A program made the translations under genes and the position numbers. From Oceanispirochaeta sp. (GTDB lineage: Bacteria > Spirochaetota > Spirochaetia > DSM-2461): DNA of 64,000 bases. Shown in pieces: positions 14,188-43,452 of the stretch. How positions within the stretch are numbered: position 1 is the first letter of the stretch; each line of letters opens with the position of its first letter. Below the pieces are notes generated by a model. That model saw only the letters and a list, made by a program, of their open reading frames with translations, did no database searches and was not told the origin of the DNA. The stretch is taken from NCBI GenBank assembly GCA_963666275.2, contig CAXXOA010000002.1, positions 2,176,001 through 2,240,000 on the forward strand, in the 5' to 3' direction.

Positions 14188-14239
14188 TTGACAGAGGCCA
14201 TTTATGCTTTTATTATGATGATAGATAATCGATAATCGA
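14188..14239 (+). promoter_or_regulatory. Promoter plus operator copy 1 (GATAATCGATAATCGA)
   Basis: TTGACA(14188)-17-TATTAT(14211); motif at 14224-14239. Confidence 0.75.
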
Positions 14240-14256
14240 AAAAAAATTGAGAGTAG

Positions 14257-15309
14257 ATGATTATGAAAGCAGTTGTTTTATTAGAGCCGAGTCGAATGGA
14301 ATTACAGGAGATCCCAGAGCCTGTCCTGGGATCTGCAGATATAATATGCCGTGTGAAATCCGTTTCAATCTGTGGTACTGATCCTCATATCATCCAGGGG
14401 GAGTTTCCGGGCTTATGGCCTCAATCGTTTCCTTTTGTTCCAGGTCATGAATGGGCAGGAGAAGTGGTTCAAACCGGGCCTTTAGCCGCGTTAAGCGGCT
14501 GGAAGGACGGGGACAGGGTTTGCGGTATAAGTCATGTAGGCTGTGGACTCTGTGATATGTGCCTGGAAGGGCGCTTCAATCTTTGTCTGAATTACGGAAA
14601 GGAAAAAATGGGGCACAGGCAGTACGGACATTACAGCACTGGAGCCTATTCTGAATATATCATGGCCAGCATGAAATCGGTGGCAGCAATTCCTGACGAT
14701 CTGGATTTTGATGTCGCAGCTTGTCTTGACCCGCTCAGTATCTCACTTCATGTTGTCATGAGGTCGGGAATAAAACCCGGGGATAATGTTCTGATAACAG
14801 GCAGCGGGGCACAGGGGCTCATGAGCATCATTTGTGCCCGGGAACTGGGCGCCGGGCGAATTGTTGTTTCCGGCAGCGGATATCGACTGAAGTTTGCTGA
14901 AAAAATAGGCGCCCTGACACTGAATTACAAAGATAAAAATGTATTGAAAGATGCTTTGGATATGACAGAAGGGCGGGGCTTTCAGCGGGTCATCGAGTGT
15001 TCGGGAAGCACCTCGGGTTTTACCATGGCTGTTGATGCTGTGGCAAAAGGGGGAGTTGTTTCCGTCGTCAGTCTGCCGGATGAACCGGTAGAAATCTCTC
15101 TGAGACGCATTGTCCTGGATGAAATAGATATTAGGGGAAACAGGGCAAACCCGAATACGCTCAAGAAGGCCATCTCCATCGCAGTCAGAAACCGTGAGCT
15201 GCTAAGGAGCATGATTACCCATACCTTTCCTCTTTCTGAGTTTGATACCGCTTTTGAGATATTTACAGGCAGAAAGGATAATTCCGTCAAGGTTATATTA
15301 AAACCGTGA
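14257..15309 (+). CDS. Zn-dependent medium-chain (polyol/threonine-DH-like) dehydrogenase
   Basis: ICGTD, GHEW, CGLCDMC...C structural Zn site, GSGAQG. Confidence 0.92.
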   Translation: MIMKAVVLLEPSRMELQEIPEPVLGSADIICRVKSVSICGTDPHIIQGEFPGLWPQSFPFVPGHEWAGEVVQTGPLAALSGWKDGDRVCGISHVGCGLCDMCLEGRFNLCLNYGKEKMGHRQYGHYSTGAYSEYIMASMKSVAAIPDDLDFDVAACLDPLSISLHVVMRSGIKPGDNVLITGSGAQGLMSIICARELGAGRIVVSGSGYRLKFAEKIGALTLNYKDKNVLKDALDMTEGRGFQRVIECSGSTSGFTMAVDAVAKGGVVSVVSLPDEPVEISLRRIVLDEIDIRGNRANPNTLKKAISIAVRNRELLRSMITHTFPLSEFDTAFEIFTGRKDNSVKVILKP

Positions 15310-15347
15310 GGTTAATAAAAATAGAACTGTAACTAAGGAGATTGTTG

Positions 15348-16247
15348 ATGAAAGTTTTTACAGAAGAGCTTCGGTGTGCTGATGCCGCAATAAGAATTGA
15401 TGTTTATGGAGGGCCAGACAGACAGAAAGTGGCCGAAGATTCCACCTTTCTGAATTACAGACTGGCAGCTGTTACAGCTCATTCTGATACAACTAAAGGG
15501 AAACCGGATATTATCTGGAATTATGAACGGCCCAAAAAAGATATTTCCTTTATTGGAGAGCAGCTTATACTCGATGGTTTCTGGGAAGACGGGGAAATTA
15601 ATAAGGTTCTGGTCTCCATGCTGGCAATGGAGCTGAATAAGGTTGAACTTTATCCGATGCATTCTTCAGCTGTGGTTTACCGGGATAAAGGGATCCTCCT
15701 GCTGGGGGGAGAAAATAATCATGGAAAAAGCATGAGCCAGCTTGAGGGTTGTCGAAGAGGGGCTCTGATGTTTTCTACCGAAACTACTGTTATTAATGAG
15801 GATTGCAAAGCAGTTCTGGGATCTAAGAACATCTATGTCAAGAAACGGGCAAAAGGAACAGAACGGTCGGATCTTCCCGATCAGGATGAAGGTGTTGCTA
15901 AATTTTTCAACAAGGAACCGGAATATAAAACTATAGACGGTCCAATATCCATTGACCTTGTAATTATGCCCAGTATTGACGGACACTTTGATACCAAAGT
16001 TCTGCCTATGAATCAGTTTGAGAGTTCCTATCAGAGTTATCACTCACTTATGAACTTCATGGGAATGAATCAGCTCCTTTCCGGTGATGACGGTCTCTCC
16101 ATGCCTATTATCGATACAGATGCAAGGCGAAAAATTAGAGGCAAAATCTGTGCAAAGTTTGCTTCCGGGCGTCCCTATTATCTTATGAGAGCAAAAACTC
16201 CCCAGATTATATTCGATGAAATCGACAAGATCATTGACGGTATGTAG
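15348..16247 (+). CDS. HPr kinase/PEPCK-like P-loop protein of unknown function
   Basis: MHSSAVVYRDKGILLLGGENNHGKS matches the HxxxV..GILxxGxxxxGKS layout of HPrK-like proteins. Confidence 0.6.
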   Translation: MKVFTEELRCADAAIRIDVYGGPDRQKVAEDSTFLNYRLAAVTAHSDTTKGKPDIIWNYERPKKDISFIGEQLILDGFWEDGEINKVLVSMLAMELNKVELYPMHSSAVVYRDKGILLLGGENNHGKSMSQLEGCRRGALMFSTETTVINEDCKAVLGSKNIYVKKRAKGTERSDLPDQDEGVAKFFNKEPEYKTIDGPISIDLVIMPSIDGHFDTKVLPMNQFESSYQSYHSLMNFMGMNQLLSGDDGLSMPIIDTDARRKIRGKICAKFASGRPYYLMRAKTPQIIFDEIDKIIDGM

Positions 16248-16253
16248 GGCTCT

Positions 16254-16820
16254 ATGAAAATAGCTGTAATATCCGATATACATGAAAACTACCATAACCT
16301 TCTGTTATTCCTTGATAGGATAAAAGGGGAGGGAATAGGACATATCCTGTTTCTGGGCGATTTCATCAATGCGGGAATTGCACGAGTACTGGCCAGGTCC
16401 GGCTACCCTGTCTTCGCCGTTTGGGGTAATAATGACGGAGACAGGACAGCTATTCTGACAGAATGTCTGCATAAAGAGAGCGGGATGAAAATTTCCAAAG
16501 AGTGCTATGGGGATATTACCATTGAGAACAGAAGAATCTTTCTGTCCCATTATCCTGATCTGGTTCAGATAGCCTCGTCATCCGGTTTGTTTGATGCTGT
16601 TTTTTTCGGGCACTCCCATCAGGAATTCCTGGATTCATCCGAAACCTGCGTGGTCATGAATCCAGGAGAAATATCAGCACACAAGTTCGGAAATGCCAGC
16701 TTTGGTATCTATGATACTGCCAGTAACAGTGCGGTTCTGTATCAGCTGGATAACTCAATGACAGTGAAAAATGAAAGGGTTGAAAAAGAGTATTTCCGGC
16801 TGGGATTTAATCAGGAATAA
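16254..16820 (+). CDS. Calcineurin-like metallophosphoesterase (YfcE type)
   Basis: ISDIH, LGD, GNND, GHSH, NPGE. Confidence 0.9.
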   Translation: MKIAVISDIHENYHNLLLFLDRIKGEGIGHILFLGDFINAGIARVLARSGYPVFAVWGNNDGDRTAILTECLHKESGMKISKECYGDITIENRRIFLSHYPDLVQIASSSGLFDAVFFGHSHQEFLDSSETCVVMNPGEISAHKFGNASFGIYDTASNSAVLYQLDNSMTVKNERVEKEYFRLGFNQE

Positions 16821-16985: not shown

Positions 16986-17957
16986 GTGAGGTATATAAAG
17001 TGGATCAGAGATCTGGGTAGAGATGAAACTTTCATAACAGGGGACAAAGCAGCCAGCCTGGGAGTGCTTATTCAGAATGGTTTTAATGTTCCCGGAGGGT
17101 TCTGTATAACCGGTCCGGCATTTGAATATCTGATGAATGAACAGGAACTTATGCCTGAGATTTGCCGCATTATGAAAACGATAGATTTCAAGTGCTATGA
17201 TGATATTGAGGAGAAATCATCAGCCATAAGAAATCTGATCAATTCTGCGGAAATCCCTGAAGATTTGATGGATGAGATCCTAGAGTCTCTCAGGGAGCTA
17301 TCAGATGCGGCAGACTCTGCCTCCTATCTTGCCGTTCGATCTTCAGTCTTTTTTGAAGGCTGCAGCAGGGCGGGTTTTCCCGGAATGATGGATACCTATC
17401 ATTATATCCGAGGACAGGAAAAGATCTTACCGTGCATCAGGCATTGCTGGGCATCTGTTTATACGGCCCGGTCCCTCTTATGGCGGCATCAGCAGGGAAT
17501 TCTGAATAACCATTTTGTAATAGCACCGCTTGTTCAGAATATGATTCACTCTGAAGTATCTGGAATACTTTTAACAGTGAATGCAGTGACCAGCAATAAA
17601 AACGAGATAATAGTTGAAGCCAACTGGGGCCTTGGGGACTCACTTGTTTCGGGGGCGGCAATTGTAGACAATTACATTCTTGGCAGAGATCCACTTGATA
17701 TTAAACAGAAAACGATCATGAAAAAAAATATATATATCACTTTTGACAGAGAGGAGAAACAGGGAAAAAAACAGTACCAGGTTCCATCAGAAATATCGAC
17801 TGTCTGTACTTTGACAGATGAACAGCTTCTTGAGCTGGCTGATGCGGGGATCAGAATAGAGAAGGTCTTTCAGTCCCCACAGAATATTGAATGGGCCTAT
17901 GTGAAGGGAGAACTCTTTCTGCTTCAGGCAGGTAAGATCAAAGCATTGATCTTTTGA
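16986..17957 (+). CDS. Stand-alone PEP synthase/PPDK-type ATP-grasp (nucleotide-binding) domain
   Basis: GDKAASL, VPGGFCIT, AVRSS, CWASVY, VQNMI, EANWGLG, QNIEWA; GTG start 16986 after AGGAGG; no His domain. Confidence 0.9.
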   Translation: MRYIKWIRDLGRDETFITGDKAASLGVLIQNGFNVPGGFCITGPAFEYLMNEQELMPEICRIMKTIDFKCYDDIEEKSSAIRNLINSAEIPEDLMDEILESLRELSDAADSASYLAVRSSVFFEGCSRAGFPGMMDTYHYIRGQEKILPCIRHCWASVYTARSLLWRHQQGILNNHFVIAPLVQNMIHSEVSGILLTVNAVTSNKNEIIVEANWGLGDSLVSGAAIVDNYILGRDPLDIKQKTIMKKNIYITFDREEKQGKKQYQVPSEISTVCTLTDEQLLELADAGIRIEKVFQSPQNIEWAYVKGELFLLQAGKIKALIF

Positions 17958-18105
17958 GGCATGCTCTTTTCCATAGGGATCTTTCTGGGCACTCATGTCA
18001 GAAAATAGTACTTAACAGTTATGCGGAATTGCAGATGATAACTGAAAAGGGGCCTTCGCGCCATCAGGATTGTATGCGGTTTTATTAAGGCAGGGGAGTT
18101 TTTCC

Positions 18106-18156
18106 TTGACATAATAGAAAAGCAATATAACAATAATAGAAAATCGATAATCGATA
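18106..18156 (+). promoter_or_regulatory. Promoter region plus operator copy 2 (GAAAATCGATAATCGA)
   Basis: TTGACA at 18106; motif at 18139-18154 just before the RBS. Confidence 0.7.
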
Positions 18157-18171
18157 CTAAAGGGGGGTTTA

Positions 18172-19866
18172 ATGGATACTTCTAAAGTATTAGCTCAGTA
18201 TCTGGGGGATTCAGCGTTTCCTGTTGAATGGAAGAGTGAAGAAGAGAAGAAGTTATTCTGGTTCTTTGACGATAACCATGTTCCTTTTCCTGTTTCTCCT
18301 ATGTTTTTCAGCCTTGACGGGTGGTGGGGGCCAACTTGTGAATATCTTTTCAAAAGATTTGATGTAGGCTCTGGTGTTAAATGGCACGGGAAAAAAATTA
18401 ACGGTTACGTTTATACAGCCATTGAACCCCGGGCAACGTCTCAGGATGCAGACGAGACTCAGAAATACAACAATATGGTTATGCCTGCCTATGCAACCAA
18501 TTTTCTTGACTGGTGGGATAAAAGGTATCTTCCGGAAGTTCTTAAAAACTTTGAATACATAGATAACTTCGATCATGAAAATGCGACGATTCCCGAACTG
18601 ATGATCTATCTGGAAGAGATGGTAGATATTCAGGAGAGGAACTTCAGACTTCACTGGATTCTGAACTGGGCTCAGTTTCAGGCCTCCATGGGATTCGTCG
18701 GTGCTGTGGGTCAGTATATTGGAGAAGTGGATCAGGACTTTCTGGGCCAGGTTAATGTTTCCAGAGCTGACAAAAACTGGGAAAGCCTCAAAGCTCTGTG
18801 GACACTGAAAGAAGAAATCAAAGCCAGTGCGGAATTGAAATCAATCTTTACCGCACAGACTGATCCTGAAGGTATTGAAAAGGCACTTAATGGCAGTCCT
18901 TCCGGCAAAGCCTTCATGGGCAAGGTCCGGAATTATGCCAGTGAGTTCGGCTATAAGGCTGTGTATACTCATGAATATATCTATCCGCTGTATATAGAAG
19001 ATCAGAAACCTATACTTGATCAGTTAAAAAGTTATCTTGAATCTGATTTTGATTATAACAGCGTCTATGACAAATGCATCAAAGATCAGGATGAAGCGAT
19101 TGCTTATCTGAGAGATAAAATCAAAGACAAAGATCCTGAAACAAAGAAGAAATTTGAAGAGGCTCTGGATCTTAATCTGAAAATGCTTCCTCTGACTCCG
19201 GATCACCATTTCTATTTTGACCAGGGTACTTATGCCAGAATGAGAATGGTCCTTATCAGAGTAGCCAGTAGACTGGTTAAAGAGGGACTGCTGGATGATC
19301 AGGAAGATATCATGCTTCTGGAATATGAACAGCTGAGGCGCTATGTGGCCGATCCCGAAAACTACAATGGACGTCAATTGATTGAGGCTGCCAGGGCTGA
19401 AATGGAAAAGGCTAAAAAAATAACACCCCGTGACTGGGTGGGAACAGCGACGCAATGGAATATGTATGAAGAGCCTTACCATACACTGTGGGGATATCCT
19501 GAAAAATTTGAAAGAGAATCCAGTGAAAAGTGTGAGGGAACTATTCAGGGGCTTCCTGCCAGCCCGGGTGTTGTTGAAGGAACGGCTAAGGTTGTTAAAA
19601 GCCCGGCAGAATTCGAACAGGTCAAGCAGGGGGATATTATTGTCTGTATCATGACAAACCCCGCCTGGGTAGTTGTATTCAGTAAAATTGCCGGTATTGT
19701 CACAGATTCCGGCGGTGTCCTTTCTCATTCGGCGGTCGTTGCCAGAGAATTCGGGATTCCCGCTGTAGTAGGAACCAGTTCGGCAACCAAAGAGATTCAT
19801 ACAGGAGATAAAATCAGGGTCGATGGAAAAACCGGGACTGTTACAATCCTGGAATGCACTGACTGA
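18172..19866 (+). CDS. PEP-utilizing enzyme: helical acceptor-binding domain plus C-terminal phospho-His swivel domain (RPH / phenylphosphate synthase A architecture)
   Basis: GLPASPGVVEG, TNPAW, GGVLSHSAVVAREFGIPAVVG; TPDHHFY in the helical domain; no ATP-grasp. Confidence 0.88.
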   Translation: MDTSKVLAQYLGDSAFPVEWKSEEEKKLFWFFDDNHVPFPVSPMFFSLDGWWGPTCEYLFKRFDVGSGVKWHGKKINGYVYTAIEPRATSQDADETQKYNNMVMPAYATNFLDWWDKRYLPEVLKNFEYIDNFDHENATIPELMIYLEEMVDIQERNFRLHWILNWAQFQASMGFVGAVGQYIGEVDQDFLGQVNVSRADKNWESLKALWTLKEEIKASAELKSIFTAQTDPEGIEKALNGSPSGKAFMGKVRNYASEFGYKAVYTHEYIYPLYIEDQKPILDQLKSYLESDFDYNSVYDKCIKDQDEAIAYLRDKIKDKDPETKKKFEEALDLNLKMLPLTPDHHFYFDQGTYARMRMVLIRVASRLVKEGLLDDQEDIMLLEYEQLRRYVADPENYNGRQLIEAARAEMEKAKKITPRDWVGTATQWNMYEEPYHTLWGYPEKFERESSEKCEGTIQGLPASPGVVEGTAKVVKSPAEFEQVKQGDIIVCIMTNPAWVVVFSKIAGIVTDSGGVLSHSAVVAREFGIPAVVGTSSATKEIHTGDKIRVDGKTGTVTILECTD

Positions 19867-19975: not shown

Positions 19976-21007
19976 ATGAATGAGTATCTGAAATGGATGG
20001 CTGGTAAAACCACATCTGCCTGGTGGCATGATTCGGCAGATTTGAATGAAGTTGAAAAAGCAATGGAATCCGGTGCTGTGGGAGTTACTACGAATCCAGT
20101 TCTTGTAAAACAAGCTTTATTCTCAAGCCCTGAATTCTGGAATTCCTATTTAACCGATTTCCCTGAAAATCTGAAAGCTGATGCCAAAGCAGAAGAAATA
20201 ATCAGAAGGATCACAGTGGAAGTGGCGGCAAAACTGTTACCTATCTATGAAAAAACAGGGGGAGAACAGGGCTACGTCTGTGCTCAGGTCAATCCCGGAA
20301 AAACAACAGATAGAGAGGGCATGATGGAAATGGCGGAAAGACTTCATGCCTGGGCCCCCAATATTGCAGTGAAAATCCCCGGCACAGCTGTAGGGCTGGA
20401 TGTTCTGGAGGATTGTGCAGCCCGGGGGATGACGATGGTTTCGACAGTCAGCTTCACTCTGCCTCAGGTACTTGCGGCGGCTGAAAGGTATGAAAAGGGC
20501 CGTGCAAGATGCATCGCTGCAGGAAAGAAGCCAGCGAAATGTTTTGCCGTGGTCATGGTAGGCCGCATCGATGATTTCATCAGGGATGTGGTTCGGGACA
20601 ATCAGTATGAAGATATAAAAGAGGAAGATATTCTGATGTGCGGAACCGGGATTATGAAGAGGGCTTTGGAAATCTTTGAACAGAAAGGTTACAACGCCAT
20701 TCTTATGCCTGCAGGTATGAGAGGTGCCTATCATGCCCAGGACCTGGCCGGCGCCTCTTTGACAATGTCAATTCATCCGAAAATACAGGCTTTACTTGAA
20801 AAAAGTTCTTCCCCCTTCAAAGAGAGGCATGCTGAAAAGCTTGAGAAAGAGACTATAAAAAGGCTCTCCCGGGTGGAAGCTTTCAGAAAAGCCTATGAGC
20901 CGGATGTTATGCCTCCTTCAGAATTTATTACCTACGGGGTTGTGCAGAAAACCCTGGCGCAATTCTCAGAAAGCTGGAGTCAATTGGAAGGGTATACGCT
21001 TCCTTAG
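19976..21007 (+). CDS. Transaldolase family protein (atypical active site)
   Basis: WHDSA, GVTTNP, Schiff-base Lys in IAVKIP, VGRIDD. Confidence 0.88.
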   Translation: MNEYLKWMAGKTTSAWWHDSADLNEVEKAMESGAVGVTTNPVLVKQALFSSPEFWNSYLTDFPENLKADAKAEEIIRRITVEVAAKLLPIYEKTGGEQGYVCAQVNPGKTTDREGMMEMAERLHAWAPNIAVKIPGTAVGLDVLEDCAARGMTMVSTVSFTLPQVLAAAERYEKGRARCIAAGKKPAKCFAVVMVGRIDDFIRDVVRDNQYEDIKEEDILMCGTGIMKRALEIFEQKGYNAILMPAGMRGAYHAQDLAGASLTMSIHPKIQALLEKSSSPFKERHAEKLEKETIKRLSRVEAFRKAYEPDVMPPSEFITYGVVQKTLAQFSESWSQLEGYTLP

Positions 21008-21881: not shown

Positions 21882-22553
21882 TCACTCCAGACTGTCGATC
21901 ATACTTTCTGCGGTGTGTTTGATATGCTTCTCCATAAGAGATGCAGCCTGAGTAGAATCCCCGTTCCTCAGGGCTTCAATGATTGGTTTGTGTCTTTCGG
22001 CGATCTCAAGGGAATCTGATGCTATGTGTGTACCCGTGGCATAGGACAGACTGGCAAATAGCATGTTCCGGGAAATCCTCTGAATCAGTTTATGTCCTGA
22101 AATGCGGATAATCGTTTCGTGGAACAGAATATTGTAGGTTGTCCGTTTGTAGGCATCTCCTTTTTTCGCTGCCTTTATCATTTTATCAAGGATATCTTCC
22201 AGTTCCCTGATTTCCTGTTTTGTTATTTTTGATGCCGCAATGCCTGCTGTCACGGATTCCAGGGTGGCCCTCACGGTAAAAACCTCCCAGAGGTCTTCTT
22301 TGCTCAGAGTTTTTACGGTGATGCCCTTGTAGGGAACAGATTCAAGAAGTCCCATCTCGACAAGTCCCTTGATGGCTTCTCTCACAGGAGCCTGACTGAC
22401 ATTGAATTCTTTAGCTATAGAGCTTTCTATTAGCCTATCACCGGCCTTATATTTCTTTGATAGAAGATCCTGTAATATCTGATCTTTAATTTTTTCACTG
22501 AGAACCTTTTTCTCAAAACCGTCTCTTACACCATTATTGTTGGCCAATGACAT
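21882..22553 (-). CDS. GntR (FCD) family regulator; candidate reader of the 16-bp operator
   Basis: GDRLIESSIAKEFNVSQAPVREA; FHE...H...H FCD metal ligands. Confidence 0.93.
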   Translation of the reverse strand: MSLANNNGVRDGFEKKVLSEKIKDQILQDLLSKKYKAGDRLIESSIAKEFNVSQAPVREAIKGLVEMGLLESVPYKGITVKTLSKEDLWEVFTVRATLESVTAGIAASKITKQEIRELEDILDKMIKAAKKGDAYKRTTYNILFHETIIRISGHKLIQRISRNMLFASLSYATGTHIASDSLEIAERHKPIIEALRNGDSTQAASLMEKHIKHTAESMIDSLE

Positions 22554-22669
22554 TCTCCATAATCAAAATATAAAAACCACAGAGCTTACAAGAAGTTGAA
22601 CAGTAAAAAGTTGTACCTGATTTTTGTCTTTTATATACCAGTTATATAATAAAATCAATCAGTTTTCAA

Positions 22670-22687
22670 TTGATTATCGATAATAAA
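22670..22687. promoter_or_regulatory. Operator copy 3 in the divergent GntR/MBL intergenic region
   Basis: TTGATTATCGATAATAAA, palindromic core ATTATCGATAAT. Confidence 0.7.
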
Positions 22688-22797: not shown

Positions 22798-23688
22798 ATG
22801 GATCAAATTACCAAGAATGTTTTTGCAGAAACGGATGTACGGGGATGTAATCCTGGTTTTGTTATTACATCCGAGGGGGTTGTAGTTATAGATACACCTC
22901 AGCTTCCGACATATGCCGTTCGGATGTATGAGCAGGCAAAATCATATGGACCCATTCGCTATTTAATTAACACAGAACACCATGTAGATCATATATTTGG
23001 AAATTACTACTTCAAAGATGTTGAACATGTCCTTTCCCATCAGGCAACCCTGGATAATTTTATGACGGTTTATCCACAGATCAATCCTTACGAATACGCA
23101 AAAGAGGCCGTCCCGATGGATGATCCTGAAGGTATGGCAATCTTTCCTGATACAGATACCTATTTTGCGGCTATGAATAAACCCGACATTATCATAAATG
23201 GTGATATGATTCTGAAAGTCGGGGGCCATACATTTAACATTCTCTGTACACCGGGGCATACACCGGGGCAGCTCGCTGTTGTTGTTCCGGAAGAACGGCT
23301 TATGTTTGTGGGAGATACGGTTTTTAACGGCTGCCAGACCTGGCTTTATACATCCGATATCATTGCATGGCTTCAGTCAATCGAAAAACTTCTGGAAGTT
23401 GATGTGGATATCATAGTTCCCGGTCACGGACCTGTCTGCACAAAACAGGAACTCTATGTCCAGAGAGCTTTCATTCTGGAATGGGTAACCTCTATCTCCG
23501 TCGCTATTGGAAAGGGATGGTCAAAGGAAGAGTGCCTGAAAAAACTTGGTTTCTCCGAGAGATTCCCTGTGGATATTGGCCAGGAATATATGCTTGATGA
23601 TGTTACAATCAATAACATAGGGGCACTTTACGATCAGCTGACTTCTAAGATGCCTGTTCTGGGAACAGCCGACATCCTGACTAAATAA
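22798..23688 (+). CDS. MBL-fold metallo-hydrolase (cyclase-like)
   Basis: INTEHHVDHIFGN, TPGHT, GDT, PGHG. Confidence 0.9.
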   Translation: MDQITKNVFAETDVRGCNPGFVITSEGVVVIDTPQLPTYAVRMYEQAKSYGPIRYLINTEHHVDHIFGNYYFKDVEHVLSHQATLDNFMTVYPQINPYEYAKEAVPMDDPEGMAIFPDTDTYFAAMNKPDIIINGDMILKVGGHTFNILCTPGHTPGQLAVVVPEERLMFVGDTVFNGCQTWLYTSDIIAWLQSIEKLLEVDVDIIVPGHGPVCTKQELYVQRAFILEWVTSISVAIGKGWSKEECLKKLGFSERFPVDIGQEYMLDDVTINNIGALYDQLTSKMPVLGTADILTK

Positions 23689-23707
23689 CAAGACCCTGGA
23701 TAAACAT

Positions 23708-24655
23708 ATGAAGTTAGATAATATTAAGCATATTGCCATTATCGGTAAAGGTATGATCGGGGCCAGTCTGGCTGTCCTTTTTACAGGGAATGGCTATAAA
23801 ACCACCATATATGCCCGAAAGGATCCTGAAAAGGGGTTGGACAGCTTTGATACCTACTATAAGGATCTGATTGAAAAGGGGCTGGTTACCCCCTCTCAGG
23901 CTGCAGCCTGCAGGGACCTTTTTTCCGTGACCGGGAGTTATGAAGATCTGGCCGATGCAGACTGCATTTTTGAATGCGTTGTGGAAAACCTGGATGTTAA
24001 GTATGAAGTGTTTGCTGAAATAGAAAAACACTGTACCCATTTTAAAGCCATTGCTTCAACAACTTCAGCCATAGCGGTGAATGATCTGGCAAAAGGGATA
24101 AAACAGAAAGATAAACTAATGGTAGCTCATCCCTGGAATCCTCCCCATCTTGTACCCTGTATAGAAGTTGTAAAGGGGGAACATACTAGCGAAGAATCCA
24201 TCGAATATTTATCCGGACTTCTGGAATCAGCGGGACGGGAAGTTGCTCTGATGAAAAAAGACGCACCGGGATTCATCGGGAACAGGCTGCAGCATGCTTT
24301 ATACCGGGAAGCCGTCAATATGGTGGAACAGGGAATTGCTTCTCCGGAAGATATAGACAAGACACTGAAGTACAGTTTTATTCCCAGGTACACATCTATC
24401 GGTCTTTTTGAGCATTTTGATTATGCCGGACTTGATATGGTACTGAGTATTGAAGATTATCTGTTTCCCACTCTTTGCAATGCGGACAGAACTCAGCCTA
24501 TGATCCGGGAGCTTCATGATTCGGGCAATCTCGGGTTTAAAACCGGAAAAGGGGTTTATGACTGGAGTCAGAAAGACCTGGCCGAGTTTCGCAAAAAGGC
24601 GGGAAAGCCGTATCTGGATTTTTTTAACTGGAGCCTTCCGGATAAAAATAATTAA
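23708..24655 (+). CDS. 3-hydroxyacyl-CoA dehydrogenase family protein (gulonate/carnitine-DH-like)
   Basis: GKGMIG, ECVVENLDVK, ASTTS, HPWNPPHL, GFIGNRLQ. Confidence 0.9.
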   Translation: MKLDNIKHIAIIGKGMIGASLAVLFTGNGYKTTIYARKDPEKGLDSFDTYYKDLIEKGLVTPSQAAACRDLFSVTGSYEDLADADCIFECVVENLDVKYEVFAEIEKHCTHFKAIASTTSAIAVNDLAKGIKQKDKLMVAHPWNPPHLVPCIEVVKGEHTSEESIEYLSGLLESAGREVALMKKDAPGFIGNRLQHALYREAVNMVEQGIASPEDIDKTLKYSFIPRYTSIGLFEHFDYAGLDMVLSIEDYLFPTLCNADRTQPMIRELHDSGNLGFKTGKGVYDWSQKDLAEFRKKAGKPYLDFFNWSLPDKNN

Positions 24656-24846
24656 TTGACGGACAGGAATATATTCATTTTTATCAGAAGTCTCAAGAAA
24701 TCCCGATCAGAAGTAATTTTATCAGAATACAAGTAAATATAAAAATCTTCTATTTGATTTATCAAATGCGGGGAAGATTATTCCCTCAAAGAGGGAGACT
24801 CCATGGGGTATGCATCTTTGGGAATCCTGAAATAAGTGAGGACAGT

Positions 24847-25719
24847 ATGAGCTCTTTTTCCTACCACAGTCCAGGATCTATAATTGAGGCTGTGGAGCTG
24901 CTAAATCAATACAAGGGTTCTGCCCGACCGTTTCTGGGCGGTACGGATCTCCTTGTAAGGGTTACCAAAGGACATGTGTTTCCACAAGCCCTGGTGGATC
25001 TCAAAAAAGTTTCTGATATAAGCAAAACAATAACTCTGGGCTCCGGTTTTCTTATCATAGGAGCCCGGATCAGGATTGCTGATTTTCTCGAAGATCAAAC
25101 TGCTGCCGCATTATTTCCTGCACTTGCGAAAGCCGCATCAAAGGTCGGGTCGGTACAGATCCGCAACCGAGCGACTCTCACAGGGAATATCTGCAATGCT
25201 TCGCCTGCGGCTGATATGGTTCCGCCCCTGGCGCTGTACAAAGCTTCTGTGGATATTGCCGGATCTGAAGGATCAAGGAGAGTCGCTGTTCAGGACTTTA
25301 TTCAGGCGCCGGGAAAAACCGGATGCCGGACGGGAGAAATCGTGACAGCAATCCGGATACCTGTTCCGGTCCTCCCATACGGTGCTGCTTTTGAAAGGAT
25401 AACACGAAGAAGAGGAGTGGATCTGGCAACTGTTAATCTGGCATGCGGGATTGACTGCCACCGGAAGGTGACTTTTGTATTCGGCGCTGCCGGTCCTGTC
25501 ACTGTTTCTGTTTCTGATGATTCCGGTATTCTGCTGCGCTCGGATATACACAAGGATGCAAGGGACAGAAAAATTGACGAAATGGTTGATTCTGCCGCTC
25601 CCATCAGTGATGTGCGGGCCGGAGCAGATTACAGGAAGGGGATGCTCTCAACCCTGGGAAAGCGGGCATTGAGCAGGGCTCTGAATTCCTATCTGGCGGG
25701 AGGTCCCGAAGATGGCTGA
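24847..25719 (+). CDS. Xanthine dehydrogenase family FAD subunit (complex 1)
   Basis: GGTDL, QIRNRATLTGNICNASPAAD, PISDVRA. Confidence 0.92.
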   Translation: MSSFSYHSPGSIIEAVELLNQYKGSARPFLGGTDLLVRVTKGHVFPQALVDLKKVSDISKTITLGSGFLIIGARIRIADFLEDQTAAALFPALAKAASKVGSVQIRNRATLTGNICNASPAADMVPPLALYKASVDIAGSEGSRRVAVQDFIQAPGKTGCRTGEIVTAIRIPVPVLPYGAAFERITRRRGVDLATVNLACGIDCHRKVTFVFGAAGPVTVSVSDDSGILLRSDIHKDARDRKIDEMVDSAAPISDVRAGADYRKGMLSTLGKRALSRALNSYLAGGPEDG

Positions 25720-26197
25720 CAATATTACACTGACAATTCATATAACAGTTAACGGGCAGAGCCGGACGCTTGAGGTTGATCCATCGGAAACCCTCCTTTC
25801 AGTTCTGCGGGACAGGCTGAATCTGACGGGGACAAAAAAATGCTGCGGTGTAGGGGAGTGCGGTGCCTGTACGGTTGTAATGAACGGCCTGTCTGTTAAT
25901 TCCTGTATCATCCTGGCTGCAGAGGCCGACGGAGCTGATGTGGTAACAATCGAAGGACTTTCGGAGAGCGGGTCTCCGGGAAGGATTCAGCAGGCTTTTC
26001 TGGACGAGGGCGCTGTACAGTGCGGTTTCTGCACCCCTGGAATGGTTATGTCTGCCCATGCTCTATTGATGAAAAATCCATCTCCCACTGTTTTTGAGAT
26101 AAAAGAAGGGCTTTCCGGTAATCTCTGCCGCTGTACCGGATATGCAAGGATCATCAGAGCCGTGCAGACGGCGGCGGGAAAAGGCGGCGGAGAATGA
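25712..26197 (+). CDS. Xanthine dehydrogenase family 2x[2Fe-2S] subunit (complex 1)
   Basis: CGVGECGAC, QCGFCTPG, NLCRCTGY. Confidence 0.95.
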   Translation: MADNITLTIHITVNGQSRTLEVDPSETLLSVLRDRLNLTGTKKCCGVGECGACTVVMNGLSVNSCIILAAEADGADVVTIEGLSESGSPGRIQQAFLDEGAVQCGFCTPGMVMSAHALLMKNPSPTVFEIKEGLSGNLCRCTGYARIIRAVQTAAGKGGGE

Positions 26198-28419
26198 AAA
26201 TTGTTGGTAAACCCGTGAACCGGGTGGGAGGAAAAGAGAGGGTTCTGGGTACACAGGAGTATGTGGGGGATATCAAGCTTCCGGGGATGCTTCATGGAAA
26301 ACTGGTTACCCTGGACTGCGCCCGGGCCCGGATTGACCGCATCCATTTGAAACGGGCCCTTATGATACGGGGGGTCAGAAAAATTTTCACCGCTGCGGAC
26401 TTTCCCGAAGATCCCCGGTTTGGACCCCAGTACAGGGATCGACCGGTGCTTGCAGGAAAAGAGACAAAATTTCATGGAGAGCCGGTGGCCTTTGTTGTGG
26501 CAGAGTCTATTGAAGCTGCCAATCGGGCTGCTGCATTGATTACAGTCGATTATGAAATCCTTTCCGCTGTTCTCTCACCTGCTGCGGCACTGGATCCTGA
26601 TGCTCCCCTTGTTCAGGATCCGTCTTTAAGGAAGGAGATGGAGTGGAAAAATTCCAATATTTTGAATCAGTGGGTCTATGGCTGGGGGAATATTGAAGTC
26701 TGCCGGGCTGACCGGATTATTGAAAATACCTACAAGTTCCCTATGGTTACCCATTTTGCCATTGAATCATTCTGCTATCTGGCGGATCCTTCATCAGAAG
26801 GTATCACTTTATACAGTGCCATTCAGAATCCCTTTCAGCTCCAGAAAATCATAGCTGATGTGACAGGTTTTCCTCTGTCCAGGGTGAGAATTATAGCTCC
26901 TGATCCCGGAGGGGCCTTTGGCGGGAAACAGCATCCCAAGCATGAACCTCTGCTTGTTTTGGCCAGTCTGATGCTCGGTGAGCCTATCAGGCTGGAACTG
27001 AGCCTGGAGGAATCCTTTCAGGCTGTCCGCAGGGCCGCCTCGGAAATCAGAATAAAAACAGGATTCATGGAAGACGGAACCCTTGTCTTTCATGATATTC
27101 AGTCGGATTTTCTTGCAGGTGCCTATGGTGACATTGCCGGCAGGGTTGTGAGTAAAGCAAACTTTGTGGCGGCGGGGCTTTACAGAACTCCTCATGTCAG
27201 GATTACTGCGAATGCTCTTCTATCCCATACTGTTCCTTCCACAGCTTTCAGAGGGTTCGGGATTCCCCAGGTCAACTGGGCTCTTGAATCCCAGATGGAC
27301 GAGATAGCGGTTAATCTCGGAATGGACAGAGTCGCCATCAGGATGAAAAATCTTCCCGAAAAAGGAGAGGTCTTTATTCCGGGAAATACACCGGCTGACG
27401 GCTGTTGGAAAGAAGTTCTCCAAAAGGCAGCGGATGCCATAGGCTGGAATAGCCCCTTAAAGCCCAACCGGGGAAGGGGGCTGACCATGGGGTTGAAAAT
27501 GGGGGCCACGACTGCCGCGTCCTATGCCATCGTCAGGCTTCATATGGACGGCAGTGCTACAGTCTTCGCCGGAACATCCGATATGGGCCAGGGGGCCAGA
27601 ACCATATTTTCGCAGATTGTGTCGGAAATGCTGGGTATCGATATGGCCAAAATAACCATGGTGATGGGAGATACCGGAGCTGTCCCTTTCGATCTTCAGA
27701 CATCAGCCAGCAGGTCCACCGTTTTTATGGGAAAAGCCATTCAGAAAGCCTGTGACGAGGTGATCGGTAAAGTCCAGATCCTTGCCTCAGAGGTGATGGG
27801 TATCGAACCTGTCCAGCTGGCATTTGAACCGGGGTTCATAAGACATGAAAAAGAAACAGTTCCCATTGATACCATTCTTAAAAAGCGGTTCACACCGGTG
27901 AAGGGAGAAGTCATAGGTGTTGGCGAGGCCAGGAGTGAATACCTGCCGGATCATCCCATGGGCGGCCTGGCGGCTTTTTATGAAATCGTGGCTCTGGGCA
28001 CCGAGGTAGAGGTGGATCGAGAAACAGGGTTTACCCGTATAAAAAAAATGATCATCACAGGTGATGTGGGAAAAGCCGTTAATCTTCAGCACGTTGAAAT
28101 GCAGGATGAGGGTGCGGCTGTAATGGGTATCGGACATTCGATAATGGAGCAGATGATTCTGGATGACAACGGAAAGATCCTTAACCTGGGGGCTCTGGAC
28201 TACAGGATTCCCACTATTATGGATATTCCTGATGAAATGCGTTCCATTGTGATCGAAAACGGCGACGGGCCAGGCCCTTACGGAGCCAAGGGATGTTCTG
28301 AAAGTGGTATCCTCACGGTGGCTCCTTCTATTGCCGCGGCTGTTTATGAAGCTGTAGGCGTGAGGATCCGGGATCTGCCTCTCTCTCCCGAAAAGATCTG
28401 GAAATCATTGAACCCCTGA
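26194..28419 (+). CDS. Xanthine dehydrogenase family molybdopterin subunit (complex 1)
   Basis: IQNPF, GGAFGGK, AFRGFG, DMGQG, SASRST, GAKGCSE. Confidence 0.93.
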   Translation: MKIVGKPVNRVGGKERVLGTQEYVGDIKLPGMLHGKLVTLDCARARIDRIHLKRALMIRGVRKIFTAADFPEDPRFGPQYRDRPVLAGKETKFHGEPVAFVVAESIEAANRAAALITVDYEILSAVLSPAAALDPDAPLVQDPSLRKEMEWKNSNILNQWVYGWGNIEVCRADRIIENTYKFPMVTHFAIESFCYLADPSSEGITLYSAIQNPFQLQKIIADVTGFPLSRVRIIAPDPGGAFGGKQHPKHEPLLVLASLMLGEPIRLELSLEESFQAVRRAASEIRIKTGFMEDGTLVFHDIQSDFLAGAYGDIAGRVVSKANFVAAGLYRTPHVRITANALLSHTVPSTAFRGFGIPQVNWALESQMDEIAVNLGMDRVAIRMKNLPEKGEVFIPGNTPADGCWKEVLQKAADAIGWNSPLKPNRGRGLTMGLKMGATTAASYAIVRLHMDGSATVFAGTSDMGQGARTIFSQIVSEMLGIDMAKITMVMGDTGAVPFDLQTSASRSTVFMGKAIQKACDEVIGKVQILASEVMGIEPVQLAFEPGFIRHEKETVPIDTILKKRFTPVKGEVIGVGEARSEYLPDHPMGGLAAFYEIVALGTEVEVDRETGFTRIKKMIITGDVGKAVNLQHVEMQDEGAAVMGIGHSIMEQMILDDNGKILNLGALDYRIPTIMDIPDEMRSIVIENGDGPGPYGAKGCSESGILTVAPSIAAAVYEAVGVRIRDLPLSPEKIWKSLNP

Positions 28420-28557
28420 GATTGTGCCGGGAGGGGCAGTCAGTGCCGGACGTACCCGATATGATCTTAAAATTTTAATGACAGAGGATAAACTCTAATC
28501 TTTAATATACAAATAATATTATATAAGGATTGGATTATGAATTGAGAATAATAATTC

Positions 28558-28611
28558 TTTACGGAGAAGGCTTCTTATTGTAAAATTGTTCTAGATTATC
28601 GAAAATCGATA
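28558..28611 (+). promoter_or_regulatory. Promoter plus operator copy 4 (GATTATCGAAAATCGA)
   Basis: TTTACG(28558)-17-TAAAAT(28581); motif at 28594-28609. Confidence 0.72.
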
Positions 28612-28624
28612 GAGGGGTTTCCAG

Positions 28625-30958
28625 ATGGGAAATTTGAAAGTAGTAGGCAAATCAGTCACCAGAAAAGATGTGATTGATAAAGTTACCGGGATAACCAAAT
28701 ATACCGGTGATATTAACATGACCAGTCAACTTTACGGTGCATTCTACCGCAGTCCCGTACCTCATGGAAAAATTGTGAATATAGATGTCACCAAAGCAAA
28801 AGAATATCCCGGAGTCCGGGTTGTGATAACCGGGGAAGATGTTCCCTATCTCATTGGCCAGACCATTGTAGACCAGCCAGTCCTTGCTGTCGGCAAGGTC
28901 AGGATGGAAGGTGAGCCTATTGTCGGGATTGCGGCAGATACCATAGAAGCGGCCTACCGGGCCGCTGCTCTTGTGAAAGTGGAAATAGAACCTCTTCCCG
29001 TTATTGATGACGTAATGGAAGCGATGAAACCCGATTCACCCCTTGTTCATGAGAAGCTGGAAGACTATGTCAATCTGACCAAATCCCGCTGTAAAAACGG
29101 TACGAATATTTATGATCACTTCACACTCAGAAAAGGGGATGTGGAGAAGGGTTTTGAAGAAGCCGATGTTATCATTGAAAAGGAATACGACTGCGCCATG
29201 CTCAGTCATGCAACAATAGAGACCCATGCTTCGATTGCCCAGTATGAAAGAAGTGGAAAACTGACAGTCATTAGCGCCGCTCAGTCTCCCTTCAGGATCC
29301 GTGCTGAAATGGCCAGAGCCTTCGGTATGGATGAAAGTAAAATCAGGGTGATATCTCCTCCCATCGGAGGAGGATTCGGCAGTAAAGTGGAAATGCGGTC
29401 CGAACAGCTGGCCATCGCTCTGGCCATGCATTCCAACGGTAAACCCGTAAAGGTTGTTTTTTCCAGAAAAGAGGATCTTCTCGCGGGGGTGGTCAGGGCC
29501 GGTGTAAAATTCAGAATCAAAACAGGTGCAAAAAAAGACGGTACCATCGTAGCAGTCCAGTCTGATAATTACTGGGATACCGGTGCCTATGCAACTTTAG
29601 GTCCGGTTATCTCCCTGAAAGCGAATATTGCCCTGACAGGGCCCTATAGTGTTGATAATATCAAGATGGACGGATACTGTGTGGCAACCAACAAACAGCT
29701 GGGAACAGCCTACCGGGGGTTCGGGGCGGCCGAAGCCGCGTATGTCCATGAGCAGCAGATGGACGCTGTAGCAAAGGCTCTTGGTATGGATCCTCTGGAA
29801 TTGCGGCTTAAAAATGTCATGGTCGACGGCAGCAGGGGACATACAGGTGAAACCATGTTTACTGTGGCCATCAAAGAGTGTCTGGAAGCTTCTGCCGAAA
29901 GTCTGGGATGGAATTCAATGCCTTTGAGCTGGATTACTCCGGAAGGGAAAATCCGGGGAAAAGGGCTGGGGGCTTTTTTGAAATTCACAGGAACTCCCTC
30001 TTTTTCCGGTGCTACCGTGAAATTTTCCCATGACGGCTCTGTCACACTCTCCTATGGAACTACTGCCATGGGCCAGGGGGTTGGAACGATCCTCTCCCAG
30101 ATGGTTGCTGAAGAGCTTGGGATAGACATTAACAAGGTTGAAACAGTTCTGGCTGATACGGATCATGTTCCTCTGGATAAAACCACAACCTCCAGCCGTT
30201 CCACCCATCATATGGGAAATGCCGTAATCAAGGCGTGCGATGATGCGAAAAAGAAGTTGAAGCATCTTGTTTCTCTGGCCTGGAAAGTTCCAGAAGATTA
30301 CATAGAAATTGAAGATGGTGTTATCAGAGAGTCAAATGGGGGACCAGATGCCAGGCAGGTAGCCATTAATGATATAAAATCTACCGGACTTCTTAAAACT
30401 TCTGATCCCATTATCGGAAACGGCAGTTATGAAACTTCAGATCTCTGGGATAAACCGGACCCTGAAACCTATCAGACCAGCCGTTTGACTGCCATGTGGT
30501 TTTTCGGAGCCAATGCGGCAGAAGTTGAAATTGATCCTGATACGGGGAAAATTGAGGTTATTCAGGTTGCTGCCGGTCATGACGTAGGAAAGGCTATTAA
30601 TCCTCTGAACTGCATTCAGCAGATAGAAGGAGGAGTAATGATGGGACTGGGAAATGCCATACTGGAAGAGTATATCCATCGCGATGGAAAGCTAATGAAT
30701 GGAAATATGGTAGACTTTAAAGTTCCCACGACTATGGATATGGTCAAAACTGTCAAATCCATTCTCATAGAAAAAGCCCATCCCGAAGGTCCTTACGGCG
30801 CTAAGGGAATTGGGGAACCCTCCATGTGCGGCGCACCGGCCGCTATCGCTTCCGCCGTAGGAAATGCTCTGGGAATAACAGTACATACGATTCCCATAAA
30901 ACCGGAAACGATTATTGGGGCTGCCAGAAAAATTATGGAGGAAAACGATGCTTCCTGA
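28625..30958 (+). CDS. Xanthine dehydrogenase family molybdopterin subunit (complex 2)
   Basis: AQSPF, GGGFGSK, AYRGFG, MGQG, SSRST, GAKGIGEP. Confidence 0.93.
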   Translation: MGNLKVVGKSVTRKDVIDKVTGITKYTGDINMTSQLYGAFYRSPVPHGKIVNIDVTKAKEYPGVRVVITGEDVPYLIGQTIVDQPVLAVGKVRMEGEPIVGIAADTIEAAYRAAALVKVEIEPLPVIDDVMEAMKPDSPLVHEKLEDYVNLTKSRCKNGTNIYDHFTLRKGDVEKGFEEADVIIEKEYDCAMLSHATIETHASIAQYERSGKLTVISAAQSPFRIRAEMARAFGMDESKIRVISPPIGGGFGSKVEMRSEQLAIALAMHSNGKPVKVVFSRKEDLLAGVVRAGVKFRIKTGAKKDGTIVAVQSDNYWDTGAYATLGPVISLKANIALTGPYSVDNIKMDGYCVATNKQLGTAYRGFGAAEAAYVHEQQMDAVAKALGMDPLELRLKNVMVDGSRGHTGETMFTVAIKECLEASAESLGWNSMPLSWITPEGKIRGKGLGAFLKFTGTPSFSGATVKFSHDGSVTLSYGTTAMGQGVGTILSQMVAEELGIDINKVETVLADTDHVPLDKTTTSSRSTHHMGNAVIKACDDAKKKLKHLVSLAWKVPEDYIEIEDGVIRESNGGPDARQVAINDIKSTGLLKTSDPIIGNGSYETSDLWDKPDPETYQTSRLTAMWFFGANAAEVEIDPDTGKIEVIQVAAGHDVGKAINPLNCIQQIEGGVMMGLGNAILEEYIHRDGKLMNGNMVDFKVPTTMDMVKTVKSILIEKAHPEGPYGAKGIGEPSMCGAPAAIASAVGNALGITVHTIPIKPETIIGAARKIMEENDAS

Positions 30959-31835
30959 ATTTGAGTTCTACCTTCCGGAAACACTGGATGAAGCTTTTAA
31001 TGTTAAAAGACAATACGGACAGGACGCCGAATATGTAGCCGGAGGCACGGATGTATATGCCAAGATGCACACAGAAGGCCATTCCTATCCTCATATTATT
31101 GATTTAAAGAAAATCCCCGAACTGCAGGGAATTGTGGAAATGGAAAACAGGGAAATATCTATGGGATCCATGGTGACACATCATGAGATCTGGGCTTCTC
31201 CTGTTATGAAGAAGAACTACTTCATATTGACCGAAGGGGTTTTTACCATTGGTTCTCACCAGGTGAGAAACCGGGGAACCATTGGTGGAAACATCTGTAC
31301 AGCAGCTCCTTCTGCGGATGGAATAGGTCCTTTGCTGGTATTGAATGCCAGGGCTGTTGTTAAGGGCAGTTCCGGGGAGAGAGTGATTCCTCTGGAGAAA
31401 TTCTTTACAGGGCCTAAAAAAACCGTTCTTGAGGGAGATGAAGTCCTGGCCAGGATCATGATTCCTCCTGTTTCCGAAAGGAGTGGGGGGGCCTACTTCA
31501 AGTATGGAAGACGAAATGCCATGGAAATTGCTCTTCAGGCTATATCTGTGTTTCTGCAGGTGGAAGAGGACGGTAAAACCTGTTCTGATGTCAGAATCGC
31601 CCTGGGAACTTCTGCTCCCACGCCCATCAGGGCCTATGGTACAGAAGAGTATCTGAAAGGAAAGGACCTGACCAATGATACGCTTATTGCCGAAACAGGC
31701 AGAGTTATCCTGAATGAAGCCAGGCCCAGGAGTTCCTGGAGGTCTTCCGCTGAGTTCAGGAAAGATCTACTTGTGAAACTGGTTCCCAGAACCATACGCA
31801 AAGCTTATTCCCGGATAGATCAAGGAGAGGTGTGA
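30948..31835 (+). CDS. Xanthine dehydrogenase family FAD subunit (complex 2)
   Basis: AGGTD, QVRNRGTIGGNICTAAPSAD; ATG 30948 after GGAGG. Confidence 0.92.
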   Translation: MLPEFEFYLPETLDEAFNVKRQYGQDAEYVAGGTDVYAKMHTEGHSYPHIIDLKKIPELQGIVEMENREISMGSMVTHHEIWASPVMKKNYFILTEGVFTIGSHQVRNRGTIGGNICTAAPSADGIGPLLVLNARAVVKGSSGERVIPLEKFFTGPKKTVLEGDEVLARIMIPPVSERSGGAYFKYGRRNAMEIALQAISVFLQVEEDGKTCSDVRIALGTSAPTPIRAYGTEEYLKGKDLTNDTLIAETGRVILNEARPRSSWRSSAEFRKDLLVKLVPRTIRKAYSRIDQGEV

Positions 31836-32320
31836 TGAATCGAAAGAAGATAGAAATAACAGTCAACGGACAAAAATACATAAAAGAGGTTTCTGTATCC
31901 CGGACATTACTCGAGTTTATTCGGGAGGATCTGGGACTAACTGGGGCAAAAGAGGGTTGCAACGAGGGGGAATGCGGAGCCTGTACTGTTATTATGAACA
32001 GGAAACCGGTAAACTCCTGCCTGGTTCTGGCCGCTGAAACCGATGGTGCGGAAATTCTGACAGTTGAAGGGCTTGCCATGAATGGTGAACTCCATCCTCT
32101 TCAGCAGGCTTTTATGGATGAGGGGGCTGTCCAGTGCGGATACTGTACTCCCGGTATGCTGATGACTGCCAAAGCGATTCTTGATGAGTTTGATGATCCC
32201 TCGGAAGATGATATCCGAAAGCTGATGGAAGGCAACCTCTGCCGCTGTACCGGGTATAACAGGATTATTTCGACTGTTAAAAAGGTTTCCAATGCCAGGA
32301 AACATGTGACAAATCTTTAA
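31832..32320 (+). CDS. Xanthine dehydrogenase family 2x[2Fe-2S] subunit (complex 2)
   Basis: CNEGECGAC, QCGYCTPG, NLCRCTGY. Confidence 0.95.
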   Translation: MMNRKKIEITVNGQKYIKEVSVSRTLLEFIREDLGLTGAKEGCNEGECGACTVIMNRKPVNSCLVLAAETDGAEILTVEGLAMNGELHPLQQAFMDEGAVQCGYCTPGMLMTAKAILDEFDDPSEDDIRKLMEGNLCRCTGYNRIISTVKKVSNARKHVTNL

Positions 32321-35044: not shown

Positions 35045-35121
35045 TTGTGCCTCTGCTAAAAAAGTCAATATATTTCTATTACTTCGTATGAATGTATTCA
35101 GTACGAATCCAAAAGAGTTAT

Positions 35122-35137
35122 TCGATTATCGATAATC
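35122..35137 (-). promoter_or_regulatory. Operator copy 5 (GATTATCGATAATCGA on minus strand)
   Basis: About 80 bp upstream of the PPDK-like start, in transcription orientation. Confidence 0.75.
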
Positions 35138-40270: not shown

Positions 40271-40278
40271 GGACTCGT

Positions 40279-41094: not shown

Positions 41095-41096
41095 TT

Positions 41097-42257: not shown

Positions 42258-42300
42258 TTATGAAAGAAAAACACAAGTACTATTGAAAGGAGAAAGAAAT

Positions 42301-43359: not shown

Positions 43360-43452
43360 GATTAAAACCGGGGTTGTTATCTCTTCCTTATCAAACACTG
43401 TAATGACAGCTTGATTTTTCAAAATAATAATCTCTGTTTTCTGCTGCGTATT

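Follow-up and report, generated by a model that had tools for sequence, protein, structure and literature searches.

The window analysed here, 64,000 nucleotides of Oceanispirochaeta sp. (contig CAXXOA010000002.1, positions 2,176,001 to 2,240,000), contains a 21-kb catabolic cluster in which three genes of a putative phosphohistidine kinase system lie among metabolic and regulatory genes. We call them A (the ATP-grasp gene at 16986), B (the acceptor and His-swivel gene at 18172) and C (the phosphoenolpyruvate (PEP)-barrel gene, 35044-32699), and the C-terminal domain of C is called R. Whole genomes carry G-numbers (G000 is the window genome), loci L-numbers and proteins P-numbers.

16986..17957, + strand: A, stand-alone PEP-synthase-type ATP-grasp (PpsB/HpeI-like), open frame, under relaxed selection
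18172..19866, + strand: B, RPH-type acceptor domain with C-terminal His swivel (PpsA/HpeH-like), conserved, His519 at 19726-28
32699..35044, - strand: C, PPDK His swivel, PEP/pyruvate TIM barrel and R domain, no ATP-grasp, His121 at 34684-82
32702..33307, - strand: R domain of C, predicted winged helix and four-helix bundle with near-invariant His692 (32971-69), His757 (32776-74) and His764 (32755-53)

B has 564 amino acids, with an RPH-like body and a C-terminal PF00391 swivel, and A has 323 with PF01326 as sole domain, which confirms the two separate genes of the initial annotation. The catalytic-His motif of B, T/SxxGGxxxH near the C terminus, reads TDSGGVLSH, and His519 is invariant in the 34 aligned rows. 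The best solved relative is RPH (E 6e-30), and B scores below the curated NCBIfam cut-offs (190 of 578 bits for PRK08296.1-5; 130 of 999 bits for NF041857, RPH). A weak search among 3,770 candidates of 988-2,820 amino acids found no B fused to a longer partner. A and B comprise the same three modules as RPH, which is one ATP-dependent chain with an antibiotic as substrate (PMC4844700). HpeHI, CreHI and PpsAB share with them an ATP-grasp gene separate from the gene of an RPH-type acceptor with His swivel, and share with B the T/SxxGGxxxH motif without a regulatory Thr (PMC12167813). By these features of sequence A and B form a PpsAB/HpeHI-type pair, in line with the Thauera-type split proposed earlier. 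They differ in that the phenol and Hpe pathway genes are absent near B. The close-clade cluster holds no carboxylase or CoA-ligase genes. Furthermore, HpeHI, CreHI and PpsAB all require the grasp subunit and ATP (PMC12167813), whereas in the present system the grasp subunit has decayed or been deleted, and the regulon includes a PEP-barrel protein that carries R.

We compared 80 metagenome loci of the A family, many of them short. The close clade of A occurs with B in 12 of them (B 51-76% identity), directly adjacent in 4, with B immediately 5' of A in L055-L058; just one of the 80 has C within 10 kb of A, so that A and B appear to be the ancestral unit. The close-clade loci also hold the HprK-like gene, MBL, molybdo-enzyme, Zn-dependent dehydrogenase, SDR, lactonase, cupin, transaldolase/transketolase and GntR genes. 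A scan of genome contigs with the window A returned 10 loci, mostly distant. A distant A/B clade (A 37-44%, B 22-32%) occurs in L024-L028, L030 and part of L075-L122, next to genes for amidohydrolase_2 (LigW/ACMSD-like), a HAD or inositol-monophosphatase-family protein, a flavin oxidoreductase and a CoA ligase; it probably represents another undescribed aromatic pathway of the phosphorylate-then-(de)carboxylate kind.

Decay and loss of the ATP-grasp

The product of A reads QNIEWA (N300, 17883-17885) and LQAGK (G316, 17931-17933), as first annotated, and by 1dik numbering N300 and G316 indeed align with Asp321 and Arg337 of Clostridium symbiosum PPDK, residues that act in Mg/ATP binding and catalysis. 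The letters are identical in contigs from three runs of one sample, possibly the source of the assembly and in that case not independent of it; an assembly error was rejected on this agreement. The 119 closest stand-alone orthologs, taken as the best 120 of 1,216 matches minus A itself, keep the Asp in 118 cases and the Arg in 118, one ortholog being truncated. The supposition that D>N and R>G are conserved among orthologs as a family trait was rejected on these counts. The family ends in LQ[S/A/T]R[K/N], not in LQxRP as had been assumed, and has the PPDK-like FPGMMDT loop in 119/119. G20, V123, S130, A192 and E218 are present in all 119 orthologs and all altered in the window, whose changes include G20D (17043-45), E218D (17637-39), D300N (17883-85) and R316G (17931-33). 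In total A breaks 25 of the 97 columns conserved in at least 97% of the orthologs (ortholog mean 0.57, maximum 5), columns that were defined on the orthologs themselves, a bias in their favour. Such breakage, with substitutions private to one genome, indicates relaxed selection rather than a family trait, and A is probably impaired; by the measure of PpsAB/HpeHI, an intact grasp ATP site is found in the orthologs and not in the window A.

Relative-rate counts point the same way. With G1062 as outgroup, 74 sites of A changed only in the window genome against 18 only in G036 (p 5e-9), and the count against G501 is 78:19. The same comparison with G036 gives 48:38 for B (50:43 against G501), 17:17 for the HprK-like protein and 17:13 for the MBL protein. 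A is the sole stand-alone ATP-grasp of the window genome, where no VadK-type gene was found, and the PEP-utilising housekeeping proteins are a canonical PPDK and Enzyme I. There is also a second, full-length PPDK-like protein (G000:C1:2335711-2338323), whose N-terminal part is divergent and without GGKG or PGMMDT, with His motif and barrel present.

G041 and G1062 have B, an intact A and no R, and they retain A although a canonical PPDK is present. G036 and G501 have A, B and C, the window genome has B and C with a decayed A, and G536, one contig at 98% completeness, has B (71%) and C (64%) within 7 kb and lacks A. No match to the intact A ortholog P0006 was found in G536, and PF01326 occurs there only in a 979-residue protein and the canonical PPDK. 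Where G036 and G501 have the order operator, A, transketolase, the operator of G536 is directly followed by transketolase, with no N in the stretch. The deviating conserved columns number 7/333 for C in the window genome and 1/331 in G536; those of B number 14/260 and 13/258, with 2 and 2 in G036 and G501, which are near kin, a circumstance that lowers their counts. Since A is deleted in G536 while B and C are conserved, the genome-specific decay in the window supports the charging of B from PEP. The initial annotation had counted strain-specific decay against that option; the substitutions are genome-specific as it feared, and yet the decay backs the option, A being dispensable where C is present. 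Its alternative, one ATP-grasp serving both His-domain proteins, cannot hold for G536, which is without a stand-alone ATP-grasp. Of 201 genomes in the family of G036, three carry B, and R occurs in exactly these three.

C and the R family

C was first annotated by its coordinate 32699, although it lies on the minus strand and starts at about 35044. Its Pfam content is PF00391 and PF02896 only, the TIGR01828 match begins at model position 356, i.e., the N-terminal ATP-grasp is absent, and the profile scores are 605 bits for TIGR01828 versus 140 bits for PTS_I_fam. The swivel and barrel motifs GIGLCRTEHMF, VRLLDPPLHEFLP, M-ETPRA, GTND and CGEH are kept in 29/29 close orthologs, and the regulatory Thr two residues before the swivel His is missing in C and in 118 of 120 C-type proteins. 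About 200 extra C-terminal residues beyond the PPDK parts make up R, which the initial annotation overlooked and which is the strongest link.

At E 0.001 there are 1,249 representatives of R, which carries an automatic MarR label in the database and matched no Pfam or NCBIfam family. The predicted fold is a winged helix and a four-helix bundle (predicted local distance difference test score 94.9; bundle 96.5). Residues 1-81 match MarR folds (Z 11-12.5), which covers 40% of R only. The invariant residues sit in the bundle, in an NDHxD loop and an S[YF]HxxWxELHED helix with three histidines in all, and His692, His757 and His764 are kept in 145/149, 147/148 and 148/149. A Foldseek search of R gave no match at E 0.001. 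The best fold match of the bundle is p130Cas (Z 12.5, root-mean-square deviation 2.4, 111 aligned); CheA P1, an HPt domain, ranks 28th (Z 8.8, deviation 2.9, 95 aligned, 3% identity), the arrangement being a common one. Judged by the model, the likeness to HPt appears no better than to other bundles, and a metal or docking site would fit the three histidines as well as a phosphocarrier.

Among the 150 best representatives, 29 R proteins are longer than 260 residues: 9 carry a PEP barrel, 6 a PPDK ATP-grasp with His, 5 an RPH-type acceptor with His, 2 a His fragment and 7 none of these. The fusions are scattered over the R tree (3, 6 and 5 label changes), which has rough support and was not used. 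From 23 matched plasmid-collection records 13 loci were opened, 6 of them from Rhodococcus and not independent. In 13/13 a His-swivel protein is the neighbour or the fusion partner of R, a PRK05878/VadK-type donor stands beside it in 10/13, and 9 of these 10 hold a second His-swivel protein (6 clearly RPH-type); a His-less A-type grasp beside R was found in 0/13. R is therefore found where two proteins meet that each have a His of their own, a donor that lacks an acceptor site and an acceptor that lacks a donor site, and C would be the PEP-using form of the R-linked donor. A second, non-RPH type of acceptor also accompanies R (L169:7189-9570, L170:6684-9573, L176, L177), with the His swivel first and then about 400 residues without assignment; in Rhodococcus opacus B4 it forms one protein with R, and in Methylibium PM1 the two are separate, next to B12 mutase genes. 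R is further fused to cyclase-like, VOC-like, tyrosine-phosphatase-like (by eye) and AMP-binding proteins (P0252, P0299, P0321, P0324; L174:6435-8606). Within the phylum of the window genome R was detected in 3 of 401 genomes, once weakly, and it was found in none of 301 and 281 genomes (two overlapping draws around G042/G045) or 162 (around G043), draws that held no positive control.

R lies downstream of PRK05878 genes in two mycobacterial plasmids, and by synteny Rv1126c of Mycobacterium tuberculosis is probably an R protein. Its neighbour VadK (Rv1127c) is a truncated PPDK with its own His adjoining an R-family gene, as C has its own His and R; VadK consists of grasp and His and uses ATP, whereas C, with His and barrel, would use PEP (PMC13400623). 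VadK autophosphorylates His422 from ATP and was interpreted as regulating the methylcitrate cycle; co-expression of Rv1126c improved its solubility; the parts of the report that deal with VadK ascribe no function to Rv1126c (PMC13400623). Rv2047c has a PEP-utilizing domain and a proposed role in mycoketide phosphorylation (PMC2443190). In transposon sequencing the three genes share one condition pattern, with mean insertion counts over six iron conditions of 0.3/6.4/0.9/11.4/16.9/2.7 for Rv1126c, 2/9.8/4.5/62.1/59.3/3.1 for Rv1127c and 0.2/25.6/0.5/86.9/81.3/0.9 for Rv2047c (PMC7058343).

Operators and the remaining regulon

ATCGATNATCGAT sites (at most one mismatch) stand before the gene at 14257 (twice), B, the GntR/MBL pair, the second molybdo-enzyme operon and C, so that 6 of 10 genome-wide sites fall inside the 21-kb cluster where 0.02 are expected.

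14188..14240, + strand: sigma70-like promoter (11/12) and two overlapping operator sites, upstream of the gene run that ends in A
14257..16820, + strand: Zn-dependent dehydrogenase, HprK/PEPCK-like P-loop protein (no Pfam family) and YfcE-like metallophosphoesterase, conserved cluster members of that run
18106..18155, + strand: sigma70-like promoter (10/12) and the genome's only exact ATCGATNATCGAT site, upstream of B
19976..21007, + strand: transaldolase-family protein downstream of B
21882..22553, - strand: GntR/FCD regulator, the likely reader of the operator, judging by conserved linkage
22669..22681, strand unassigned: operator site between the divergent GntR and MBL genes
22798..32320, + strand: MBL-fold hydrolase, 3-hydroxyacyl-CoA-dehydrogenase-like protein and two sets of xanthine-dehydrogenase-family molybdo-enzymes
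28598..28610, strand unassigned: operator site before the second molybdo-enzyme operon
35121..35133, strand unassigned: operator site with one mismatch, upstream of C; the C of G036 is likewise preceded by one

An AraC regulator is also among the cluster genes. Directly upstream of A there is no ATCGATNATCGAT site at up to two mismatches and no promoter-like site, while the operator precedes A in G036, L046, L050 and L085. The motif recurs at gene starts in most related loci scanned; L048, L055, L057 and L060 have none or stray copies only. The operator is likely of GntR type and read by the GntR/FCD protein. With sites before B and C, and none before A where relatives have one, C is likely co-regulated with B and A appears to have lost its own site. 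Of the separate operators first claimed for A and B, that of B was found and that of A was not; the co-regulation claimed for C gains support from its upstream site.

The HprK/PEPCK-like protein (15342-16247) has an odd P-loop, GGENNHGKS, belongs to no Pfam or NCBIfam family, and at 52-75% identity is among the most constant genes across the clusters. Outside the cluster, IolN-/IolM-type scyllo-inosose genes score above NCBIfam cut-offs at 39299-44769 and 52160-54145, the region also having a second IolN copy and a UxaE epimerase at 54677, and an insertion-sequence fragment resembling an integrase was seen by eye at about 50000-50800. The inositol genes were rejected as part of the regulon, since they have no common operator with it.

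As to the substrate, the clusters hold sugar-type ABC transporters, an SMP-30 lactonase, a gluconate-5-dehydrogenase-like SDR, transaldolase, transketolase and SauS- or MmsA-like acylating dehydrogenases with carboxyltransferase. A hydroxylated ring or sugar-derived compound, processed via lactonase, dehydrogenases, transaldolase/transketolase and a CoA-acylating aldehyde dehydrogenase, is our best guess and a rather doubtful one. Sulfoglycolysis was set aside as less likely, since neither sulfoquinovosidase nor isomerase was seen; a SauS-like match of 596.8 of 600 bits in L116, with transaldolase, transketolase and TauE genes close by, had pointed to it. The window genome has two distant pairs of acylating aldehyde dehydrogenase and carboxyltransferase (G000:C2:1887780-1891960 and C2:852680-855680), with about 65% identity to their counterpart in the G036 cluster and one of them downstream of a transaldolase, which may supply the missing lower pathway.

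Possible routes of phosphate to B

With a probability of roughly 0.55, B is the phosphohistidine small-molecule kinase of an anaerobic catabolic regulon and is charged from PEP by C, via R, to His519. PEP would phosphorylate His121 of C at C's own barrel, to judge from the intact PPDK motifs; the half-reaction from PEP to His is textbook PPDK and Enzyme I chemistry. The phosphate might then reach His519 through a conserved histidine of R acting as an HPr/HPt-like carrier (at about even odds), or R might be a docking adaptor between C and B. The swivel of B would finally phosphorylate a substrate hydroxyl, as its homologs HpeH, PpsA and RPH do. The swappable donor C with R would in this way replace the ATP subunit A, and where the ancestral A route spends two high-energy bonds (ATP to AMP and inorganic phosphate), the C route would cost one PEP. 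If C charges B from PEP, A becomes redundant, and both its decay here and its deletion in G536 would follow. Much the same had been proposed in the initial annotation, an impaired ATP-grasp with PEP charging through the 32699 protein: private decay, the deletion in G536 and the conservation of B and C now stand behind it, while the impairment of A and the transfer from C to B we infer from sequence. A PEP-fed phosphohistidine relay onto a soluble small molecule is known from Enzyme I/HPr of the phosphotransferase system (PTS) and from the PEP-dependent DhaKLM (PMC13099321). Here C is PPDK-derived, unlike Enzyme I, the carrier would be a winged helix with four-helix bundle instead of HPr, and the end enzyme is an RPH-type swivel protein. 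The proposed system would hence join an HpeHI/PpsAB-like last step to a PTS-like first step that is not built of PTS parts. The open-licence PMC and bioRxiv literature, to which our search extended, yielded no report of a PEP-fed RPH-type kinase or of a function for Rv1126c.

Several observations weigh against this reading. C does not force the loss of A, which is fully intact in G036 and G501, and in G501 C is on a separate contig; the rarity of C near A in the metagenome loci belongs here too. A is lost in 2/4 C-bearing genomes and 0/2 C-less ones, too few for statistics, all four C-bearing genomes come from a single class, and no completeness figure is given for G041 or G1062. With the distant outgroup G041 the contrast for A is weak (40:25, p 0.06) and B appears fast against G036 (56:22). 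Many C homologs occur in Acidimicrobiia, whose gene neighbourhoods lay outside the comparison. In L193 R lies next to a three-domain protein that includes a grasp, and L172 has no acceptor within 9 kb. The mycobacterial parallel also has its difficulties: the unrelated mmpL5, irtAB and murI show the same insertion pattern (PMC7058343), the five partners listed in the VadK pull-down include PrpC and PrpD and not Rv2047c (PMC13400623), and insertions in Rv1127c could be polar.

It is conceivable, and in our view unlikely, that B exchanges phosphate between a phosphorylated metabolite and the substrate, or is charged in trans by the housekeeping PPDK or Enzyme I, with C at work elsewhere in the regulon (molybdo-enzyme, phosphoesterase, winged helix). 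HpeH alone moves phosphate from 4-phosphoacetophenone to acetovanillone (PMC12167813), both housekeeping proteins are present, the N-terminal part of R is MarR-like, and C co-occurs with the phosphoesterase and the second molybdo-enzyme in all 4 C-bearing genomes, so that B is not the sole possible partner of C. Yet the C-less genomes keep A despite a canonical PPDK, 5 representatives of R are fusions with RPH-type acceptors, and what is invariant in R lies in the bundle that bears the histidines and outside the winged helix. A shade less probable is a slow but working A that charges B and possibly C, or that works together with C, whether or not B and R take part, as a split PEP synthase or a nucleotide-recycling system. 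The frame of A is open, its family has the PPDK-like loop, all three genes are intact in G036 and G501, and the window A retains E302, Q314 and K21, R118 and T137, the last three equivalent to K22, R117 and T136, essential ATP-site residues of RPH (PMC4844700), a further point against our preferred reading; but the broken columns include the equivalents of Arg337 and Asp321, A has no operator of its own, C is near-perfect in the A-less G536 and a full PPDK is already at hand. Improbable, finally, is a horizontally acquired island that erodes gene by gene in the window genome and G536, with B orphaned and awaiting its own decay. B is present in 1 of 38 genomes of the order, its deviations are higher in these two genomes than in the near-kin G036 and G501, and the Zn-dependent dehydrogenase is also about twofold fast in the window genome (54:23). 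General erosion is also suggested by the window genome's lack of orthologs of five conserved cluster genes (lactonase, cupin, SDR, DUF1097 protein and fused transketolase) and by the absence of MBL, transaldolase and first molybdo-enzyme genes from the G536 locus. Against erosion, A had time for 25 breaks or deletion and yet the rate of B relative to G1062 is normal, and the operators upstream of B and C are kept in the window genome.

Charging of B by C would extend beyond this cluster if, as we tentatively suggest, R, which is Rv1126c-like and wrongly labelled MarR, forms a new family of phosphohistidine carriers that couples swappable PEP- or ATP-using donors (of C or VadK type) to swivel acceptors in a PTS-like relay of several phyla, the window catching a switch from ATP to PEP. 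To our knowledge all RPH-type small-molecule kinases so far described use ATP via a grasp domain. A PEP-fed version, if true, would cut by half the energy that an anaerobe spends on activating its substrate and carry the logic of the PTS over to the RPH-type family, and it would explain why many "PEP-utilizing enzymes" and truncated "PPDKs" of catabolic clusters have no second substrate domain. It gives a testable function to the R family, with its more than 1,200 representatives without a name: if R is a carrier this is a new class of relay. VadK, whose gene shares its published fitness pattern with Rv1126c and Rv2047c (PMC7058343), could then be read differently, and under the carrier reading VadK and Rv1126c would be the missing phosphate source of Rv2047c in phosphomycoketide synthesis, an open step (PMC2443190).

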